Shown: positions 21,325 to 27,724 of the stretch, in pieces
How the letters are laid out: each line of letters begins with the position of its first letter
Numbering within the stretch: the first letter of the stretch is position 1
Source of the DNA: an uncultured virus (IMG/VR IMGVR_UViG_3300007986_000015)
Lineage: Duplodnaviria; Heunggongvirae; Uroviricota; Caudoviricetes
DNA length: 64,000 nucleotides
Virus record (IMG/VR): IMGVR_UViG_3300007986_000015
Direction: 5' to 3' (one strand)
Notes under the pieces: generated by a model
Databases searched by the model: none
The model's input: the letters and a program-made list of their open reading frames with translations, nothing else
Told to the model about the DNA's origin: nothing
Position numbers and translations under genes: made by a program

Positions 21325-21400
21325 GCCCCCGAAACATTATATGGATGATGTTCCGGCTCTTAACCGGAAGAATTCGGATCGTTACCGAACGGGGGTACCA
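21325..21400 (+). tRNA. tRNA-Lys(CTT)
   Basis: Loop CT-CTT-AA; atypical T-loop ATCGTTA; CCA. Confidence 0.85.
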
Positions 21401-21410
21401 TTTTTACGTT

Positions 21411-21485
21411 AGGTTCATAGTGTAATGCGTAGCACGAGAGTCTCCAAAACTCATTGTCTCAGTTCGAATCTGGGTGGACCTGCCA
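21411..21485 (+). tRNA. tRNA-Trp(CCA)
   Basis: Loop CT-CCA-AA; CCA end. Confidence 0.9.
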
Positions 21486-21491
21486 ATTTAT

Positions 21492-21566
21492 CCGCGATTA
21501 GTATAAAAGTTATTACTCCTGTCTGATACACAGGGAAAGGTGGTGCGTTACCACCATCGCGGACCA
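21492..21566 (+). tRNA. tRNA-Ile(GAT)
   Basis: Loop CT-GAT-AC; T-loop TGCGTTA. Confidence 0.85.
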
Positions 21567-21573
21567 TTTTAAT

Positions 21574-21651
21574 GCGAGGATAGGCAAATCGGTGAAGCCG
21601 GCTGGCTTATAACCAGTTGATATGGGGGTTCAAGGCCCTCTCCTCGTACCA
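21574..21651 (+). tRNA. tRNA-Ile(TAT)
   Basis: Loop CT-TAT-AA; CCA. Confidence 0.85.
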
Positions 21652-21801
21652 ATTGCATAGAAGTTGTTCAAAGTTCGCAAAGTATATTTCTCAGCTTAAA
21701 GCTGAATTTTGCTTATCAACATTATCATTTTCGAAATTTGTTGATATGGTTGTAGACCGTGATCAACAGCTAAAACATAGATCATTATATTTTCATTTTA
21801 A

Positions 21802-21876
21802 GGGCGATTAGTTCAAAGGCTAGAATCTCTGACCTGCACTCAGAGGATGCCGATTCGAGTTCGGCATCGTCCACCA
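21802..21876 (+). tRNA. tRNA-Ala(TGC)
   Basis: Loop CC-TGC-AC; G3:U70. Confidence 0.9.
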
Positions 21877-21888
21877 ACAATTTTTAAT

Positions 21889-21963
21889 GCCCCTGTCGTC
21901 TACTGGCTAGGATCTTTGGTTTTCACCCAAAGGGAGGCGGATCGAAACCGCTCAGGGGTACCA
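21889..21963 (+). tRNA. tRNA-Glu(TTC)
   Basis: Loop TT-TTC-AC; CCA. Confidence 0.88.
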
Positions 21964-21967
21964 ATTT

Positions 21968-22040
21968 GCAGAGTGGGGTGCTGGTTCCCCGCTGCGGCTC
22001 ATAACCCCAGTGACGTTGGTTCGATTCCAACCTCCGCTAC
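21968..22040 (+). tRNA. tRNA-Met(CAT), initiator-like, imperfect stems and no encoded CCA
   Basis: GGCTCATAACC anticodon arm, GTTGG-TTCGATT-CCAAC T-arm. Confidence 0.6.
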
Positions 22041-22095
22041 TTTCAGAGTCTAGTCAAGACTCGAACTTGTATAAATAAGAACATGGAGTAATTCT

Positions 22096-22764
22096 ATGTT
22101 CTATACGATATACAAGATAACGAATCGGATCAATGGCAAGTTCTATATTGGAAGCCATAAGACCATTGATCCGAATGACAATTATATGGGTTCAGGTAAG
22201 TATCTAAAACGAGCTCAAAAGAAGAATGGTATTGAAAACTTTACCAAAGAGATTTTGTTCGTTTACGACAACCCTGAAGACATGTATGCTAAAGAAGCTG
22301 AGATCGTTAATGAAGATTTCTTAACTGAAGAAAACACATATAACCTAAAGGTTGGTGGTTCTGGAGGTTGGGATTTAATCAATAAAAACAATCTCAATGG
22401 ATTTTCCAACGTTGAAGTTGCCCGTAAAGGCCGGATCGCTGCAGATGAAAAATTAAAGGCGAAGTATGGTCCTAATTGGCGAAGTATTCTCGCAATTCAA
22501 GGGGTTACGGGTTTGAAACTAAAAATTGAAGATGATCCAGATTTCTTAAAGCGTAAGAATACTCGAGCATTTCTTGGCAAAACTCATTCAGAAGATGCTA
22601 AGAAAAGAATCGGGTCGGCTAATAAAATTAGTCAATTGGGCAGTCGGAATTCCCAATTTGGGACCAAGTGGATTTACAACCCATATGAAAAGGTCTCAAA
22701 ACGAGTTCCAAAAGATATGCTGGTGCCTGAGGGCTGGCTTATCGGCCGTAAGATAAAGTTTTAA
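22096..22764 (+). CDS. GIY-YIG homing endonuclease (Seg-like) inside the tRNA array
   Basis: IYKITN..NGKFYIGSH, YMGSG, YNL; NUMOD3-like GKTHSEDAKKRI. Confidence 0.92.
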   Translation: MFYTIYKITNRINGKFYIGSHKTIDPNDNYMGSGKYLKRAQKKNGIENFTKEILFVYDNPEDMYAKEAEIVNEDFLTEENTYNLKVGGSGGWDLINKNNLNGFSNVEVARKGRIAADEKLKAKYGPNWRSILAIQGVTGLKLKIEDDPDFLKRKNTRAFLGKTHSEDAKKRIGSANKISQLGSRNSQFGTKWIYNPYEKVSKRVPKDMLVPEGWLIGRKIKF

Positions 22765-22773
22765 TACGGTATT

Positions 22774-22848
22774 GCTTCTTTGGTGAAACGGATATCACAT
22801 CAGGCTACGAACCTGACGTTGTAAGTTCGAGTTTTACAGGAGGCACCA
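22774..22848 (+). tRNA. tRNA-Arg(ACG)
   Basis: Loop CT-ACG-AA. Confidence 0.88.
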
Positions 22849-22855
22849 ATTTATC

Positions 22856-22933
22856 GTCCCCATAGTTTAAACGGTATAGAATACTGGACTCTCAATCCGG
22901 CGATTCGGGTTCGAAGCCCGATGGGGGCACCAA
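22856..22933 (+). tRNA. tRNA-Glu(CTC)
   Basis: Loop CT-CTC-AA. Confidence 0.88.
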
Positions 22934-22943
22934 TTTTTACAAT

Positions 22944-23018
22944 TTGGCCATAGCTTAACGGCAAAAGCACTGCACTGTGAATGCGGGGATACGGATTCGA
23001 TTTCCGTTGGTCAACCCA
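22944..23018 (+). tRNA. tRNA-His(GTG)
   Basis: Loop CT-GTG-AA, C discriminator. Confidence 0.85.
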
Positions 23019-23159
23019 ATATTGCCTGTTGATTCTGTTACGAGGGGTTTCAGAGTAGGGCAAGGACGTAGAGGTTTCTAAAGACTTCTCCTATCCGGAA
23101 ATTAAATGATCATCACAAATTTAGAATAGTGATGGTAAGGATCCTCTCTCATTTTTCGA

Positions 23160-23234
23160 GCGGCAGAGGTGTTAATAGATACACGAATGGCTTCCACCCA
23201 TTAGTTCTGAGAGCGTTACTCAGTTGCCGCACCA
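23160..23234 (+). tRNA. tRNA-Gly(TCC)
   Basis: Loop CT-TCC-AC; T-loop AGCGTTA. Confidence 0.8.
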
Positions 23235-23242
23235 ATTTACAA

Positions 23243-23316
23243 GCCCCATTGGTGTAATGGAAGCACACTACCCTGTCACGGTAGCAGAAGGAGATCGATA
23301 CTCCTATGGGGCGCCA
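23243..23316 (+). tRNA. tRNA-Asp(GTC)
   Basis: Loop CT-GTC-AC; GCCA end. Confidence 0.9.
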
Positions 23317-23324
23317 ATTTTAAT

Positions 23325-23410
23325 ACCTAGGTGAGCAGAATGGTATTGCAGCGGGCTGTTAACCCGTCGACGAAAGTCAACTGTAGGTTCGACTCCTACC
23401 CTAGGTGCCA
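23325..23410 (+). tRNA. tRNA-Asn(GTT) with long variable arm
   Basis: Loop CT-GTT-AA; extra GAC-GAAA-GTC hairpin. Confidence 0.85.
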
Positions 23411-23421
23411 ATTTATAAGAT

Positions 23422-23496
23422 GCCCTCTTATTTCAACGAATAGAATACTCGGCTACGAACCGAATGATGGGAGTTTGATTCTCTCAGAGGGCACCA
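23422..23496 (+). tRNA. tRNA-Arg(ACG), second copy
   Basis: Loop CT-ACG-AA; CCA. Confidence 0.8.
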
Positions 23497-23501
23497 ATTT
23501 A

Positions 23502-23600
23502 CAGGGATTGGAAGAGTCTGGTTATCTTCGTCCGGCTTGGAACCGGATAGGTATACTAAGCGTGTATGCCTCGTGGGTTCGAATCCCACATCCCTGACCA
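23502..23600 (+). tRNA. tRNA-Pro(TGG) with long variable arm
   Basis: Loop CT-TGG-AA; C1:G72; extra GGTATAC/GTATGCC hairpin. Confidence 0.85.
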
Positions 23601-23606
23601 ATGAAC

Positions 23607-23676
23607 GTTCGGAAATGCAGGTTCGAGTCCTGCTTACTCCACTGCGGGGTGGTCGTCTAACGGTAGGACACCGAAC
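23607..23676 (+). ncRNA. Circularly permuted tRNA-like RNA (Y RNA/YrlA-like topology)
   Basis: Order: GTTCGG, T-arm, closed acceptor stem, D-arm, CCGAAC. Confidence 0.7.
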
Positions 23677-23686
23677 AATTTTTTAT

Positions 23687-23777
23687 GGATGGATAAGCCA
23701 AGTCGGTCTACGGGCTGCTGTCTTGAAAACAGTTAGTGGTAAAACACGTGTGAGTTCGAGTCTCACTCCATCCGCCA
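23687..23777 (+). tRNA. tRNA-Ser(TGA)
   Basis: Loop CT-TGA-AA; variable arm; GCCA. Confidence 0.9.
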
Positions 23778-23785
23778 ATTTTAAT

Positions 23786-23850
23786 GCCCTGTTAGTTCAA
23801 AGGTCTAGAACCTCTGTTTTACACGCAGATTGTGGGGGTTTGAAAGTTCG
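23786..23850 (+). pseudogene. Truncated tRNA-Val(TAC), broken in the T-arm
   Basis: 5' acceptor strand, D-arm and TT-TAC-AC loop present; 3' end replaced by late promoter and HNH gene. Confidence 0.75.
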
Positions 23851-23869
23851 CAAATATATAAATAACCTT

Positions 23870-24550
23870 ATGAACTACAAATATATTTACGATTCACTAA
23901 TCAATACACGTCTTCAGCACCCGGCCATAGGCTATACCGAGCGGCATCACATATTACCCAAATCAATGGGTGGTGATTATTCTTTAACTAATATAGTAAT
24001 TTTAACAGGTCGTGAACATTGGATTGCTCATCTACTTTTATTTAGAATATATAAAAATAAACAGATGGCCCATGCTTGTCATATGATGGCAATGAGATGT
24101 GAAGAACGTGGTATTCCTCATATTCGCAATTCCCGCATGTATGAAGCGGTTCGAAAAATGTGCTTAGATACATGGCGCGCTAATGGTAAGAAGCGCGTTG
24201 GTAAATTTAATGGCTCGTTTGGAACAATGTGGATTTCTAATATCGAGCTTAAAGAGAATAGCCGAATTTCTAATGATACCATTATTCCGAAAGGGTGGGT
24301 GAAAGGCAGAAGCGCTTGGAATAAAAGGGGTTCTGGCCTTTGTAAAAACTGTGGTAAATCAATTAGCTTGGATCGTATGTCTTGTTCAGAGAATTGTCGA
24401 AGAGCAATTGTAAAAAACGCGCTTAAGGGCACACCAAAAACACTTGAGCATGTAAAAAATGTAAAAGAAGCATTGATTAAGAGATACGAAAATACACAAC
24501 ATCACACGAAAGGCCGCAAACGAGATGGTCTTCGTGGAAAATTTATGTAG
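23870..24550 (+). CDS. HNH homing endonuclease (Mob-like); true start 23870
   Basis: ERHHILPKSMGG....NIVILTGREHWIAHLLL; TATAAATA 5 nt before ATG. Confidence 0.9.
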   Translation: MNYKYIYDSLINTRLQHPAIGYTERHHILPKSMGGDYSLTNIVILTGREHWIAHLLLFRIYKNKQMAHACHMMAMRCEERGIPHIRNSRMYEAVRKMCLDTWRANGKKRVGKFNGSFGTMWISNIELKENSRISNDTIIPKGWVKGRSAWNKRGSGLCKNCGKSISLDRMSCSENCRRAIVKNALKGTPKTLEHVKNVKEALIKRYENTQHHTKGRKRDGLRGKFM

Positions 24551-24626
24551 GGACAGTCGCCTAATGGTTATGGCACCTCGTTTACACCGAGAAATAATTT
24601 CAGTTCGATTCTGAACTGTCCTACCA
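24550..24626 (+). tRNA. tRNA-Val(TAC)
   Basis: Loop TT-TAC-AC; ACCA. Confidence 0.85.
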
Positions 24627-24630
24627 TTTT

Positions 24631-24789
24631 GAAAGATTCACCAGTCTGTGGTCAGTTTCTAGTTTTGTCTGGCAAACGTCCTTAAATCGACTCTCGCCGC
24701 ACCGGATTAGCTATCCAATCGCAAGATACGTCAGCAGAGAAAGCTTAACATCCTAGGTAATTGTTGAGCGTTTATGGTGAACCTCTTTC
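24631..24789 (+). ncRNA. Unassigned structured RNA of about 160 nt
   Basis: Terminal helix GAAAG-A-TTCACCA / TGGTGAA-CCT-CTTTC, bounded by AT-rich spacers like the tRNAs. Confidence 0.5.
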
Positions 24790-24859
24790 AAAAACAAATA
24801 GCATGGCGTTAGCCCCTCGCGCGGTCGAAAACCCGTAATAAGGGCCCATATTTTTATTT

Positions 24860-24948
24860 GGGAGATGTACCGTTCATTGGTCTGTAAAACCAACGTCGAA
24901 AAACAGAACGGAAGTAGACAAGTGGTGCGTTACCACCATTTCCCACCA
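24860..24948 (+). tRNA. Atypical D-armless tRNA-Tyr(GTA)
   Basis: Acceptor GGGAGATG/CATTTCCC-ACCA, arm TTGGT-CTGTAAA-ACCAA, only about 9 nt where the D-arm should be. Confidence 0.65.
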
Positions 24949-24957
24949 ATTTAACAC

Positions 24958-25041
24958 GGCGGAGTTGAGCAGGTAGTGGGCTCAAGTGATTGTAAATCAC
25001 CCTCTTCGGACTTGTAAGTGCAATTCCTACCTTCGCCACCA
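24958..25041 (+). tRNA. tRNA-Tyr(GTA)
   Basis: Loop TT-GTA-AA; variable arm; ACCA. Confidence 0.78.
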
Positions 25042-25048
25042 ATTTCAT

Positions 25049-25124
25049 GGTACAGTAACTCAGTTGGTAGAGTAGCAGATTGAAACCCTGCCGGTCGTGG
25101 GATCATTCCCCACCTGTGCCACCA
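25049..25124 (+). tRNA. tRNA-Phe(GAA)
   Basis: Loop TT-GAA-AC. Confidence 0.82.
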
Positions 25125-25132
25125 ATTTTAAT

Positions 25133-25208
25133 ACTCTTATGGTGTAAGGGAATAGCACAAGAGCCTTCTAAGCTTTTAGTCTAGGTTCGAGTCCTAGTAG
25201 GAGTACCA
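25133..25208 (+). tRNA. tRNA-Arg(TCT)
   Basis: Loop CT-TCT-AA. Confidence 0.9.
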
Positions 25209-25215
25209 ATTTATT

Positions 25216-25291
25216 GCCGCTATAGCTCAAAGGCTTAGAGCCCTGGTTTTGTACTCCAGTGATCACAGTTCGAGTCTGTGTGGCGGCTCCA
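25216..25291 (+). tRNA. tRNA-Thr(TGT), variant loop
   Basis: Loop TT-TGT-AC; TCCA. Confidence 0.85.
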
Positions 25292-25298
25292 ATTTAAT

Positions 25299-25373
25299 TC
25301 GCGTGTAGTTCAGTGGTAGAGCGTTTGCCTGTTAAGCAAGTTGTCGCTGGTTCGAATCCAGCCTCGCGAGCCA
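25299..25373 (+). tRNA. tRNA-Asn(GTT)
   Basis: Canonical; loop CT-GTT-AA. Confidence 0.92.
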
Positions 25374-25379
25374 ATTTTT

Positions 25380-25470
25380 GGAAGTAAATCCCTGATGGTG
25401 ATGGGCGCTGTTTGCTAAACAGTTGGACCGTGTAAAAGCGGTTGGGGTTCGATACCTCTTACTTCCGCCA
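25380..25470 (+). tRNA. tRNA-Ser(GCT)
   Basis: Loop TT-GCT-AA; long variable arm. Confidence 0.88.
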
Positions 25471-25475
25471 TTCAT

Positions 25476-25550
25476 CCCTAGGTAGCTCAGAGGCAGAGCG
25501 TTCGGTTCATATCCGAAATGTCGAGATTTCGAAATTCTCCTTAGGGACCA
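25476..25550 (+). tRNA. tRNA with CAT anticodon (elongator Met or Ile2)
   Basis: Loop TT-CAT-AT. Confidence 0.82.
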
Positions 25551-25556
25551 TCTTAT

Positions 25557-25632
25557 TGGCCTGTAGCACAATTGGCGGTGCGGCTGACTCTGACTCAGCA
25601 GGTTAGTGGTTCAAATCCACTCAGGCCAACCA
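25557..25632 (+). tRNA. tRNA-Gln(CTG)
   Basis: Loop CT-CTG-AC. Confidence 0.9.
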
Positions 25633-25643
25633 TTTTTTTTAAT

Positions 25644-25719
25644 GCCGACATAGTTCAACTGATTAGAATTCATCCTTGGTACGGATGGGAACTGAGTTTA
25701 AGTCTCAGTGTCGGCTCCA
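25644..25719 (+). tRNA. tRNA-Thr(GGT)
   Basis: Loop TT-GGT-AC. Confidence 0.85.
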
Positions 25720-25728
25720 CTTTACAAT

Positions 25729-25804
25729 GCCTCTGAAACATTATATGGATGATGACCGGGCCTTTACCCCGGAGAATTCGGATCGTTACCGAACAGAGGT
25801 ACCA
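25729..25804 (+). tRNA. tRNA-Lys(TTT), variant loop
   Basis: Loop CC-TTT-AC; body nearly identical to tRNA-Lys(CTT) at 21325. Confidence 0.82.
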
Positions 25805-25813
25805 ATTTAAAAT

Positions 25814-25889
25814 GCATCGGTAGCTAAATTGGCTTAGCAACGCACTTTTAATGCGTGAGATCAGGGTTCGAGTCCCTGCCGGTGCACCA
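25814..25889 (+). tRNA. tRNA-Lys(TTT), canonical
   Basis: Loop CT-TTT-AA. Confidence 0.9.
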
Positions 25890-25894
25890 ATTTC

Positions 25895-25968
25895 GCCGAT
25901 ATAGTTCAAAGGAAGAATATCTGTTTCGTAATCAGATGATGTCAGTTCAAGTCTGTCTGTCGGCTCCA
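25895..25968 (+). tRNA. tRNA-Thr(CGT)
   Basis: Loop TT-CGT-AA. Confidence 0.82.
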
Positions 25969-25974
25969 GTTTAT

Positions 25975-26050
25975 GCGATAGTAATTCAACTGGGAGAATA
26001 CCACGTTGCCAACGTGGAGGTTGCGGGATCGTACCCCGCCTATCGCACCA
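25975..26050 (+). tRNA. tRNA-Gly(GCC)
   Basis: Loop TT-GCC-AA. Confidence 0.88.
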
Positions 26051-26101
26051 TCGATTAAAGTAAGAGAGATGAAGGTTCGAATCCTTTTAGTGTCAATTCA
26101 T

Positions 26102-26183
26102 GCGGATGTACGCAATCTGGCAAAGCGGCCAAGCTTAAACCTTGGTGATTTATTTGCGAGTTCGAGTCTCGCCATCCGCACCA
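26102..26183 (+). tRNA. tRNA-Leu(TAA)
   Basis: Loop CT-TAA-AC. Confidence 0.88.
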
Positions 26184-26306
26184 ATAATGGGCACTGACGA
26201 GTGTCAAGGCCAATGAGGAAAGCCTCTTGTCTAAGCAATATTCCCAGCGCATAAGTAGCAAGAATATAGATAATGCTCAAATCTCCAAAGGGCCGAAACC
26301 TTTTAT

Positions 26307-26390
26307 GTGGATATGATGAAATGGCAGACATGCAACGTCGAGAACGTTGTGCTGAAAGGCGTGGGAGTTCAAGTCTCCCTATCCACACCA
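26307..26390 (+). tRNA. tRNA-Leu(GAG)
   Basis: Loop TC-GAG-AA; variable arm. Confidence 0.85.
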
Positions 26391-26554
26391 TTTATGTTTA
26401 GTCATGGTATCACACTGTGAAATACGTTGAAGATAGATGATATCACATCTACGAGGATGGTTGATGCTAACAGAAGTAATTGCTTGATATAGCGATTGTG
26501 GAGCGAAGCAATAAATTCTCGCGTTGTAAAGTTCACTACTAAACACATTTTAAT

Positions 26555-26636
26555 ACCAGTGTACGCAATCTGGCAAAGCGGCCTGCCTTAGAAGCAGGTG
26601 ATATGTTTGTGGGTTCGATTCCCTCCACTGGTACCA
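26555..26636 (+). tRNA. tRNA-Leu(TAG)
   Basis: Loop CT-TAG-AA. Confidence 0.88.
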
Positions 26637-26642
26637 TTTTAT

Positions 26643-26716
26643 TGCTTCATAGTGTAATAGCAGCACAGGAGTCTTTGAAGCTCTTTGTCTGGGTGCGAAT
26701 CCCGGTGAAGCAACCA
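26643..26716 (+). tRNA. tRNA-Gln(TTG)
   Basis: Loop CT-TTG-AA. Confidence 0.82.
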
Positions 26717-26725
26717 TTTCAAAAT

Positions 26726-26807
26726 GCGGATGTACGCAATCTGGCAAAGCGGCCAAGCTCAAACCTTGGTGAATTATTTGTGAGTTCGATTCTCACCATC
26801 CGCACCA
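26726..26807 (+). tRNA. tRNA-Leu(CAA)
   Basis: Loop CT-CAA-AC; near duplicate of Leu(TAA). Confidence 0.88.
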
Positions 26808-27020
26808 ATTTACACATTCAATCGGTATACGCATAATAGGAGACGTCAAATTGGACGTATGAGTCTCCGATATATGTAATATGTGAAGAAGCAATTCCAA
26901 TAATGCGACTTAAAGGTTGACCTATTTAAAGTCCTAAGGTGAGAGCTTTCACCTTGGGCAGCAAAACTAATGGTGTACAATTACACCTAAATATGTTAAT
27001 ATAGATCAAAGTAGTTTAAT

Positions 27021-27096
27021 GGGTGTATGGCTGAATGCTAAAGGCGCACGGCTGCAAACCGTGATTGTGTGAGTTGGATTCTCACTGCATCCTCCA
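27021..27096 (+). tRNA. tRNA-Cys(GCA)
   Basis: Loop CT-GCA-AA; U discriminator; own early-type promoter at about 26965-27000. Confidence 0.88.
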
Positions 27097-27112
27097 AATT
27101 GAAAGTAATATT

Positions 27113-27724
27113 ATGAAAAGAGACGCACTAGTTTTAAACAAGGTTTTCATGCCTATACATGTTATCAATTGGAAGCGTACTATGTCGCTGCTGATGCAGG
27201 ACAAATGCCACGTAGTGGATCAAAACTATATTCAATATAACTTCAAAAGTTGGCTAGACGCTTCTCTTAAGATTGAGCAGAGCCCTACTCAGCACATCAT
27301 CCATACGGTTAATAATCGTATAGCTGTACCACAGGTTGTAATTCTAACCCAGTTCGATCGTCTTCCAAAGAACCAAGTAAAGTTTTCGCGTGAAAGCTTA
27401 TTTGTGCGCGATGGATATCGTTGTGGTTACTGCGGCCAAACATTCACCAAAAAGGAATTGACGGTTGATCACATCAATCCGAAATCATTCGGTGGACCAA
27501 AGTCATGGCAGAATACAATTTCTGCATGCAAGCCCTGCAATCATTTCAAGGCTGACCGTACACCTGAAGAAGCAGGAATGAGATTGTTGTTTGAACCTAA
27601 GAAGCCTTCGTGGTTTTTGCATATGAATCAAATGACTGCTCATATCGATATGAAGCCTCAGTGGAAACCCTTCTTGGATTCATTCCTTGTTAGGGAGAAG
27701 ACTAATGACGACGATGATGAATAA
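27113..27724 (+). CDS. HNH endonuclease (McrA-like); start 27113
   Basis: ALVLN, RDGYRCGYCG, LTVDHINP..GG...W.N...CKPCN..K. Confidence 0.9.
   Translation: MKRDALVLNKVFMPIHVINWKRTMSLLMQDKCHVVDQNYIQYNFKSWLDASLKIEQSPTQHIIHTVNNRIAVPQVVILTQFDRLPKNQVKFSRESLFVRDGYRCGYCGQTFTKKELTVDHINPKSFGGPKSWQNTISACKPCNHFKADRTPEEAGMRLLFEPKKPSWFLHMNQMTAHIDMKPQWKPFLDSFLVREKTNDDDDE

Follow-up and report, generated by a model that had tools for sequence, protein, structure and literature searches.

Covariation supports a strand-swapped tRNA-Tyr(GUA) fold in phage tRNA clusters and bacterial tRNA arrays

INTRODUCTION

Can a phage tRNA gene without a D hairpin still specify a tRNA that is charged and used in translation? 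The question is raised by an 89-nt locus with a GUA anticodon in the 64,000-nt stretch of DNA analysed here (the window), which is part of a 76.9-kb phage contig. The original prediction, made from the sequence of the window, read this locus as a D-armless tRNA-Tyr whose missing D-stem may be rebuilt from the variable region, and regarded it as a possible nuclease-evading variant or decoy. Reviews place D-armless tRNAs in mitochondria (PMC9976931, PMC7609411, each in part), and the words "phage" and "pseudoknot" do not occur in a 2020 review of non-canonical tRNAs (PMC7609411). No description of a strand-swapped tRNA fold was found in the full-text literature, a scope outside which subscription journals, figures, and bioRxiv supplements fall.

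RESULTS

A tRNA-Tyr gene with separated D strands

The gene and its parts, together with the surrounding cluster and the neighbouring tRNA-Tyr, are as follows.

21325..27096, plus strand: phage tRNA cluster that contains the rewired gene; 34 ARAGORN calls, 20 of 20 isotypes at a relaxed threshold
24860..24948, plus strand: strand-swapped tRNA-Tyr(GUA) gene, 89 nt, predicted pseudoknotted core, encoded CCA; single copy in the window
24860..24867, plus strand: acceptor 5' strand, 8 nt, with G1; pairs with 24937-24944
24868..24869, plus strand: 2-nt linker, equivalent to positions 8/9; 2 nt in all members, CC in 52 of 97 and AT in 28 of 97
24870..24875, plus strand: first strand (CCGTTC) of the 6-bp D-like helix, sitting where the canonical 3' D strand would
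24877..24893, plus strand: anticodon arm, 5-bp stem, loop CTGTAAA, anticodon GTA at 24884-24886
24895..24897, plus strand: variable stem 5' strand (GTC), partner of 24917-24919; the stem crosses the D-like helix, as in a pseudoknot
24906..24911, plus strand: second strand (GAACGG) of the D-like helix, moved into the variable region; supported by covariation
24912..24915, plus strand: AAGT motif, likely the relocated D-loop (A18-G19-Y20), which would touch G55-C56 of the T-loop
24917..24919, plus strand: variable stem 3' strand (GAC); supported by covariation
24922..24936, plus strand: T-arm, 4-bp stem, loop TGCGTTA (G55 type); supported by covariation
24937..24948, plus strand: acceptor 3' strand, discriminator A73 (24945), and CCA; A73 and CCA conserved in the family
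24958..25041, plus strand: neighbouring cloverleaf tRNA-Tyr(GUA), A18/G55 elbow type, with a low score of 33 bits

The GUA anticodon arm, the CCA, the acceptor strands, and the GTC...GAC around GAACGG are all present at 24860..24948 as originally described, and TACCGTTCA stands in place of the D-arm. CCGTTC and GAACGG, which had been singled out as exact complements, form a perfect 6-bp helix that is present in the MFE fold. The description of the acceptor and T-arm as intact needs qualification: both arms are present, with an 8/4 branch, and the T-loop has a non-canonical G55 and reads UGCGUUA instead of UUCRANY; by textbook standards, therefore, this T-arm is not intact. ARAGORN made no call at 24860..24948, and Rfam gave no match there up to an E value of 10. 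Since the two ends of the gene pair as a normal acceptor bearing CCA, a circular permutation or a Y-RNA-like module was rejected for this gene. The fold energy of the window gene (z -1.8) was equalled by 11 of 200 shuffles, and shuffling the variable region produced a perfect partner strand in 1.6% of cases; on the window sequence alone the helix match is therefore weak, and homologs were required.

Genomic setting of the gene

Around the cluster the phage encodes a ribonucleotide reductase, an RNase H-like exonuclease, and homing endonucleases, along with a tmRNA and a group I intron; three homing/HNH endonuclease genes lie in or beside the cluster (22096-22764, 23870-24550, and 27065-27724). 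The rewired gene is flanked by A/T-rich spacers and directly followed by the cloverleaf tRNA-Tyr, which has one mismatch in the anticodon stem and one in the T stem. Metagenomes containing the window DNA come from aquifer, cold-spring, and hot-spring sites, with seven runs as its possible source. An assembly error was rejected, because the identical rewired gene is present in six IMG/VR contigs and is spanned by one contig of a DNA run from which the window DNA may derive.

Directly upstream lie an RNA of approximately 165 nt with a long terminal helix (24628-24795) and a hairpin of approximately 47 nt (24803-24849); the pair (24628-24849) has no Rfam match and is kept in phage G001 (L068 1298-1525) with 88.6% identity over 229 nt. 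An RNA run yielded identical contigs for the tmRNA and for 24682-24844 (163 nt, within the upstream RNA and hairpin), the latter ending 15 nt before the rewired gene, and the coding DNA between the two was without contigs, which gives a weak hint that the tRNA cluster is transcribed. In this single run no contig covered the rewired gene or any tRNA of the cluster, so the absence of the rewired gene there is uninformative. A promoter scan stayed at chance level (19 versus 14.2 +/- 4.3).

The window also holds a tRNA-like module (23604-23680) whose T-arm precedes its D-arm, giving it a circularly permuted look that presumably resembles the Y-RNA YrlA module; it drew no ARAGORN call and no Rfam hit at gathering score. 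A structured stretch between two tRNA-Leu genes (26190-26300), likewise without an Rfam hit at gathering score, contains CTGACGA...GAAA, which we take to be a hammerhead-core-like motif. The T-arm 15-mer at 24922-24936 is identical to 21540-21554 in tRNA-Ile(GAT) (two matches versus 0.09 expected), which may reflect either a shared module or gene conversion. Phage G001 carries a long RNA (L068 2230-2490), the ends of which presumably resemble the L11-binding region of 23S rRNA, and a minimal tRNA-like RNA of approximately 66 nt (L068 290-355) with an acceptor, a T-like arm, and CCA, without a clear D or anticodon arm.

A family in uncultured phages and bacterial tRNA arrays

Exact and near-exact pattern searches of the element returned only identical copies and chance matches. 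Searches by blastn of the element or its region and of a second Tyr-type member against cultured phages, and of a bacterial member against plasmids, gave no record covering 80% of the query, and no cultured phage carrying the Tyr type was found in the blastn searches of cultured phages. No comparable tRNA cluster lay in the vicinity of RNase H relatives, and a pattern built on the upstream RNA gave 38 genome matches, all by chance. The motif of the small upstream RNA led to a related phage, the cluster of which contains a diverged copy (L113:337-426) with compensatory changes in every stem.

A pattern built from the CCA end and the loops of the anticodon and T arms, and blind to the D-like and variable helices, matched at least 120 loci in IMG/VR (about 140 estimated). 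Among the 120 loci listed, 107 passed the stem filter and 13 failed, leaving 57 unique sequences; two failed loci (L196 and L224) were restored by eye, giving 59 unique phage sequences, the window's own included. The anticodon loop began 22 nt from the 5' end in 57/57 unique members among the matches listed, and 40 phage records gave one strong match each to the family model. Under model R1, the window gene, which was among its training sequences, scored 96 bits. A GTDB pattern without the acceptor, D helix, and CCA matched at least 120 loci; among those listed, 80 of 120 failed and 40 passed, of which 39 were full members and one (L314) was dropped as chance. The bacterial set provides no unbiased test of the D helix, because its filter required at least five D-helix pairs. 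Three loci (L457, L480, and L488) showed a non-cloverleaf RNA with 8/4-like ends, AAGT, an AGCGTTA T-loop, and a different middle, and failed the family test.

The family thus defined comprises at least 97 distinct sequences from uncultured phages and bacterial tRNA arrays, mostly of Verrucomicrobiota. By recorded name, 26 of the 39 bacterial loci among the matches listed belong to this phylum, among them strain LW23 (L287) and a chromosome of 5.9 Mb (L302), and almost all of the 39 sit in tRNA arrays. Verrucomicrobiota are known for tRNA arrays that are long and have spread laterally, and 23 of 26 array tRNAs are charged in Anabaena (PMC8421152, in part). The GTC/GAC variable arm of the window gene resembles the Verrucomicrobiota copies, which may offer a hint, and only a hint, to the host.

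Compensatory changes support all five helices

The 59 phage sequences were aligned solely on the 5' end, the AAGY motif (with AAGT as anchor), and the T-loop. The D-like helix was paired in 353/354 cells, compared with a mean of 248 and a maximum of 274 in 2,000 shuffles, and its middle pairs took four or five different pair types; the pairing of CCGTTC with GAACGG, for which a covariation check in homologs had been suggested, is therefore borne out by that check. The acceptor was paired in 459/472 cells (shuffle maximum 393) and the anticodon stem in 294/295. With G8-C in 55/59 sequences and C.C or A.C at the fifth T-stem position in 53/59, the acceptor/T branch is 8/4, and a 7/5 branch was rejected on the same two counts.

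The five-helix test used the 23 of the 59 sequences with equal spacing, because MAFFT misaligned the AAGT block when all sequences were included. The five-helix pseudoknot was 96.9% paired in these sequences with 13 two-sided pairs, a result reached by none of 500 shuffles, and slid controls gave 34-54%. The variable stem was 90% paired in the same 23 sequences, one of its pairs showing nine two-sided changes, and 17 different 3-bp stems occurred among the 97 sequences when the register was picked per sequence. Kinship was controlled with a tree of the 97 phage and bacterial sequences built without the helix columns, on which D-helix pair 3 changed 28 times per side in only 30 joint steps, versus 37-43 for non-partner controls, and pairs 4 and 5 needed 27 joint steps.

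All five helices are supported by compensatory changes, and since the GTC/GAC variable stem also covaries, the core is read as a pseudoknot. The D-like and variable helices would form simultaneously, because both covary and share no bases. This covariation lends strong support to the idea of a rewired core in which the variable region supplies a strand of the rebuilt D-stem, and from sequence comparison it appears essentially certain that the fold is real and conserved rather than a product of chance. The contiguous D stem-loop between the acceptor and anticodon arm is absent throughout the rewired family, and the 5-bp anticodon stem, 7-nt loop, U33, and purine 37 are all present.

A relocated D-loop and an alternative elbow

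AAGT follows the moved D strand in 58 of the 59 phage members, and the source scan had not specified it. Among 563 cloverleaf tRNAs of carrier loci, AG(U/C) replaced GG in the D-loop in 122/178 with G55 versus 1/384 with U55, and the combination of AAGY with G55-C56 in the rewired family matches this A18G19/G55C56 pattern of cloverleaf tRNAs in the same loci. The alternative elbow, A18-G19/G55-C56 instead of G18-G19/U55-C56, is common in the phage and array tRNAs of the window and carrier clusters. AAGY is thus likely the relocated D-loop, and A18-G55 and G19-C56 would be the elbow contacts of the rewired tRNA. In all likelihood the first D strand has moved into the variable loop together with the D-loop, and "D-armless" holds true of the drawing only.

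The rewired gene in the place of tRNA-Tyr

An anticodon-free scan returned 110 loci, 106 with the fold and 4 that failed, and the loop read CUGUAAA in 106/106. In the bacterial loci among the matches listed, for which the 3' end was unspecified, A73 was present in 39/39, G1-C72 in 37/39, and CCA in 35/39. The identity elements of bacterial tRNA-Tyr, namely G1-C72, A73, GUA, and the variable stem (PMC9976931, in part), are all present in the rewired family.

The census of the Tyr slot covered the clusters of 22 carrier phages: the window itself, a 9-kb piece of G001, and 20 further stretches, each about 20 kb long. A true cloverleaf tRNA-Tyr was found in 2/22 (the window and L359), compared with 18-21/22 for every other isotype, and in 8/22 clusters 19 of 20 isotypes were called with Tyr alone missing. 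The count of 2/22 overstates independence, because the carriers are related (two of the eight Tyr-missing clusters share an identical gene) and many of the records are fragmentary. When the 22 carrier records were searched in full with a pattern covering the common T-loop types, no further cloverleaf tRNA-Tyr was found, and an ARAGORN Tyr call in L361 was rejected for want of a YUGUAAA loop. The suggestion of a decoy beside a normal tRNA-Tyr is therefore accurate as to adjacency in the window, the phage of which carries both the rewired and the cloverleaf form, and fails as a rule for the family. Since the rewired gene usually fills the Tyr slot, a translating tRNA fits better than a decoy.

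In bacteria, a normal tRNA-Tyr was present elsewhere in 33/36 carrier genomes (36 genomes searched for the 39 loci), which counts against the reading as a translating tRNA-Tyr. Two cloverleaf phage tRNA-Tyr genes (L053:577-663 and L359 near 12233 on the minus strand) have, by eye, an 8-bp acceptor and a 5-6-bp D-stem, and are candidate progenitors of the rewired form.

An Arg-UCU sister family

With a descriptor that specified neither the anticodon nor any loop sequence, the swapped fold was also found with an Arg-UCU anticodon in L297, where the T-loop has U55 and the motif ACGGA, equivalent to G18-G19-A20, occupies the place of the relocated loop; A20 is the main ArgRS determinant (PMC9976931, in part). 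No Ile-UAU member was found among the loci examined with this loop-free descriptor. A targeted Arg scan that specified GGA and the T-loop gave 55 loci, of which 21 had both stems and 34 failed; 11 of these 21, all of the 8/4 type, were 98.5% paired with 16 two-sided pairs, a level reached by 0/500 shuffles.

L297:4183 region; L501, L511-L513, L515, L528, L534, L541, L545, L546, L549; L551, L554: Arg-UCU sister, relocated loop NNGGA

The sister family occurs in Verrucomicrobiota, Vibrio injensis, Spirabiliibacterium pneumoniae, and the cultured phages Av-05 and Gary, where it is unannotated. The Arg fold was confirmed by script in Escherichia phage Av-05 and Vibrio phage Gary, and inspection by eye showed a shorter version of 3 bp in two more phages, A5-4 of Escherichia and Yaboi of Streptomyces. 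A shorter 7/5 Arg-UCU type (L517, L532, L543, L547, L552, and L555) shows by eye a swapped helix of 3-4 bp (CCC/GGG, CAC/GTG, CTC/GAG, CGC/GCG) followed by a canonical-looking D-loop sequence, and is annotated as tRNA-Val(aac) in Streptomyces phage Yaboi. The swapped fold of "tRNA-OTHER" in Rhodococcus phage Trina was unconfirmed by script. In an Endozoicomonas MAG, a tRNA-Arg(UCU) (L524:369-467) combines a normal D-arm with an enlarged variable region ending in the GGA motif, and is possibly an intermediate of the rearrangement.

DISCUSSION

The rewired tRNA shares with canonical class II tRNA-Tyr (RF00005) the GUA anticodon arm, 7-nt loop, G1-C72, A73, CCA, variable stem, 12-bp acceptor/T branch, and location in tRNA clusters. 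It differs in having no D hairpin, in a long-range D helix that crosses the variable stem, in a branch of 8/4 rather than 7/5, and in a G55 T-loop, and it has no RF00005 match; in tRNA mode, ARAGORN called 0/57 rewired members among the matches listed. tRNA-Sec has a 13-bp branch, a UCA anticodon, G73, and cloverleaf order, whereas the rewired family has a 12-bp branch, GUA, and A73. Bacterial tRNA-Sec also has an acceptor of 8 bp and a D helix of 6 bp with a 4-nt loop (PMC7609411, in part). The 8/4 allo-tRNAs of bacteria and phages are alike in the lengths of the acceptor (8 bp) and T-stem (4 bp), in a long D-stem closed by a short loop, and in a variable arm, but they are cloverleafs in which the D-arm is contiguous and identity is mostly that of Ser (G73/U73), whereas the D strands of the rewired family are split by the anticodon arm and A73 is present (Mukai et al., PMC5389517, in part). 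"Tyr" did not occur in one supplement file of that paper. Mitochondrial D-armless tRNA-Ser(AGY) likewise has no D hairpin between acceptor and anticodon arm (PMC9976931, PMC7609411, each in part), and the mitochondrial mode of ARAGORN called 15/57 rewired members tRNA-Tyr among the matches listed; yet tRNA-Ser(AGY) loses the D helix, whereas the rewired family rebuilds 6 bp from a moved strand, and the rewired RNA exceeds a normal tRNA in length instead of falling short of it. Judged by these comparisons, the rewired gene likely works like a class II tRNA-Tyr while standing outside the cloverleaf, allo-tRNA, and mitochondrial D-armless classes.

The order of parts runs from the acceptor, linker, and D strand through the anticodon arm, variable strand, D strand, and AAGY to the variable strand, T-arm, acceptor, and ACCA. 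In canonical tRNAs, the tertiary contacts are 8-14-21, 9-12-23, 10-25-45, 15-48, and 26-44. Displacement of a segment made up of the first D strand plus the D-loop into the variable loop would create three new junctions, 8/9 to 22, 44/45 to 10, and 20/21 to 48, and because the residues joined at each of them lie close together in the canonical L, the molecule would be expected to reach that same shape, with 24870..24875 acting as the canonical 3' D strand and A18-G55 and G19-C56 making the elbow. Host enzymes would then cut the rewired tRNA out of the cluster transcript, the host TyrRS would charge it via G1-C72, A73, GUA, and the variable stem, and it would top up the tRNA-Tyr pool in infection. 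8/4 tRNAs function in Escherichia coli translation, and some irregular 8/4 tRNAs are charged without use in translation, or are inactive (PMC5389517, in part). We put the probability that the rewired gene is a working, charged, and translating tRNA-Tyr of the phage at roughly 0.7.

If the RNA is instead a decoy, it would be a charged or uncharged tRNA-Tyr mimic, unused by the ribosome, that soaks up a host tRNA-Tyr nuclease of the PtuAB type or else some other sensor of tRNAs. Such a role would accord with the finding that phage tRNA-Tyr rescues infection from retron Eco7 PtuAB, which depletes tRNA-Tyr, and with the existence of charged, non-translating irregular tRNAs (PMC11555353, PMC5389517, each in part); a canonical anticodon loop would be expected there too, and the rewired and cloverleaf forms adjoin in the window and in G007. 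We nevertheless consider a decoy improbable: in most carrier clusters the rewired gene occupies the place of the sole tRNA-Tyr in a near-complete set, the 12-bp acceptor branch, A73, G1-C72, and CCA are all kept, and rescue from PtuAB depended on the anticodon and on strong promoter activity, in keeping with supplementation (PMC11555353, in part).

An extra-ribosomal role of a Tyr-charged or tRNA-shaped RNA, as an aminoacyl donor, a processing signal in the cluster transcript, or the ligand of a dedicated protein, seems quite improbable. The 8-bp acceptor and 6-bp D-like helix recall tRNA-Sec, a user of dedicated factors (PMC7609411, in part), and other non-tRNA structured RNAs surround the rewired gene; however, punctuation needs no invariant 7-nt anticodon loop, the neighbours vary among carriers (tRNA-Lys follows the upstream RNA in G001), and the same fold bears Arg identity in the sister family. 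A decayed pseudogene beside a normal tRNA-Tyr is very improbable for the window phage and is refuted by covariation for the family, for although ARAGORN and Rfam miss the gene, a second tRNA-Tyr lies next door in the window, and the gene is absent from RNA-run contigs (which include no cluster tRNA), the window copy has every helix intact (D-like helix 6/6 Watson-Crick) despite 18 differences from its nearest relative among the positions compared, and the family has kept its pairing through dozens of compensatory changes.

Given a translating tRNA-Tyr, the reason for the rewiring is a separate matter. Changes in the anticodon loop have been proposed as an escape of phage tRNAs from nucleases (PMC10264068, in part); escape mutations of this kind were rejected here, the loop being canonical and invariant in 106/106. 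Because the anticodon loop is unchanged, any nuclease escape must come from the altered core, and we regard escape by this route as a tentative reading on the unlikely side; the rewiring may just as well have arisen neutrally, by rearrangement of an 8/4 ancestor. Doubtful to the same degree is the broadest proposal, that bacteria and phages possess a second, strand-swapped and pseudoknotted tRNA topology for several amino acids (Tyr and Arg here), which would be translating, invisible to annotation, and selected for nuclease escape with a native anticodon loop.

Phages and the chromosomal tRNA arrays of bacteria share a conserved non-cloverleaf tRNA topology, and the rewired tyrosine tRNA goes unnoticed by the standard tRNA finders for bacteria. 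Phage tRNA censuses are accordingly systematically wrong, as many large phages that seem to lack tRNA-Tyr do have it in a form that is not called. The two forms of tRNA-Tyr in the window phage, rewired and cloverleaf, make a matched pair with which the reason for phage carriage of tRNAs can be tested, and the Arg sister in cultured E. coli and Vibrio phages also helps in testing it. If the rewired tRNA translates, the L shape would be reachable by another path of the chain, which bears on tRNA evolution, and the fold would offer a natural scaffold for engineered tRNAs.
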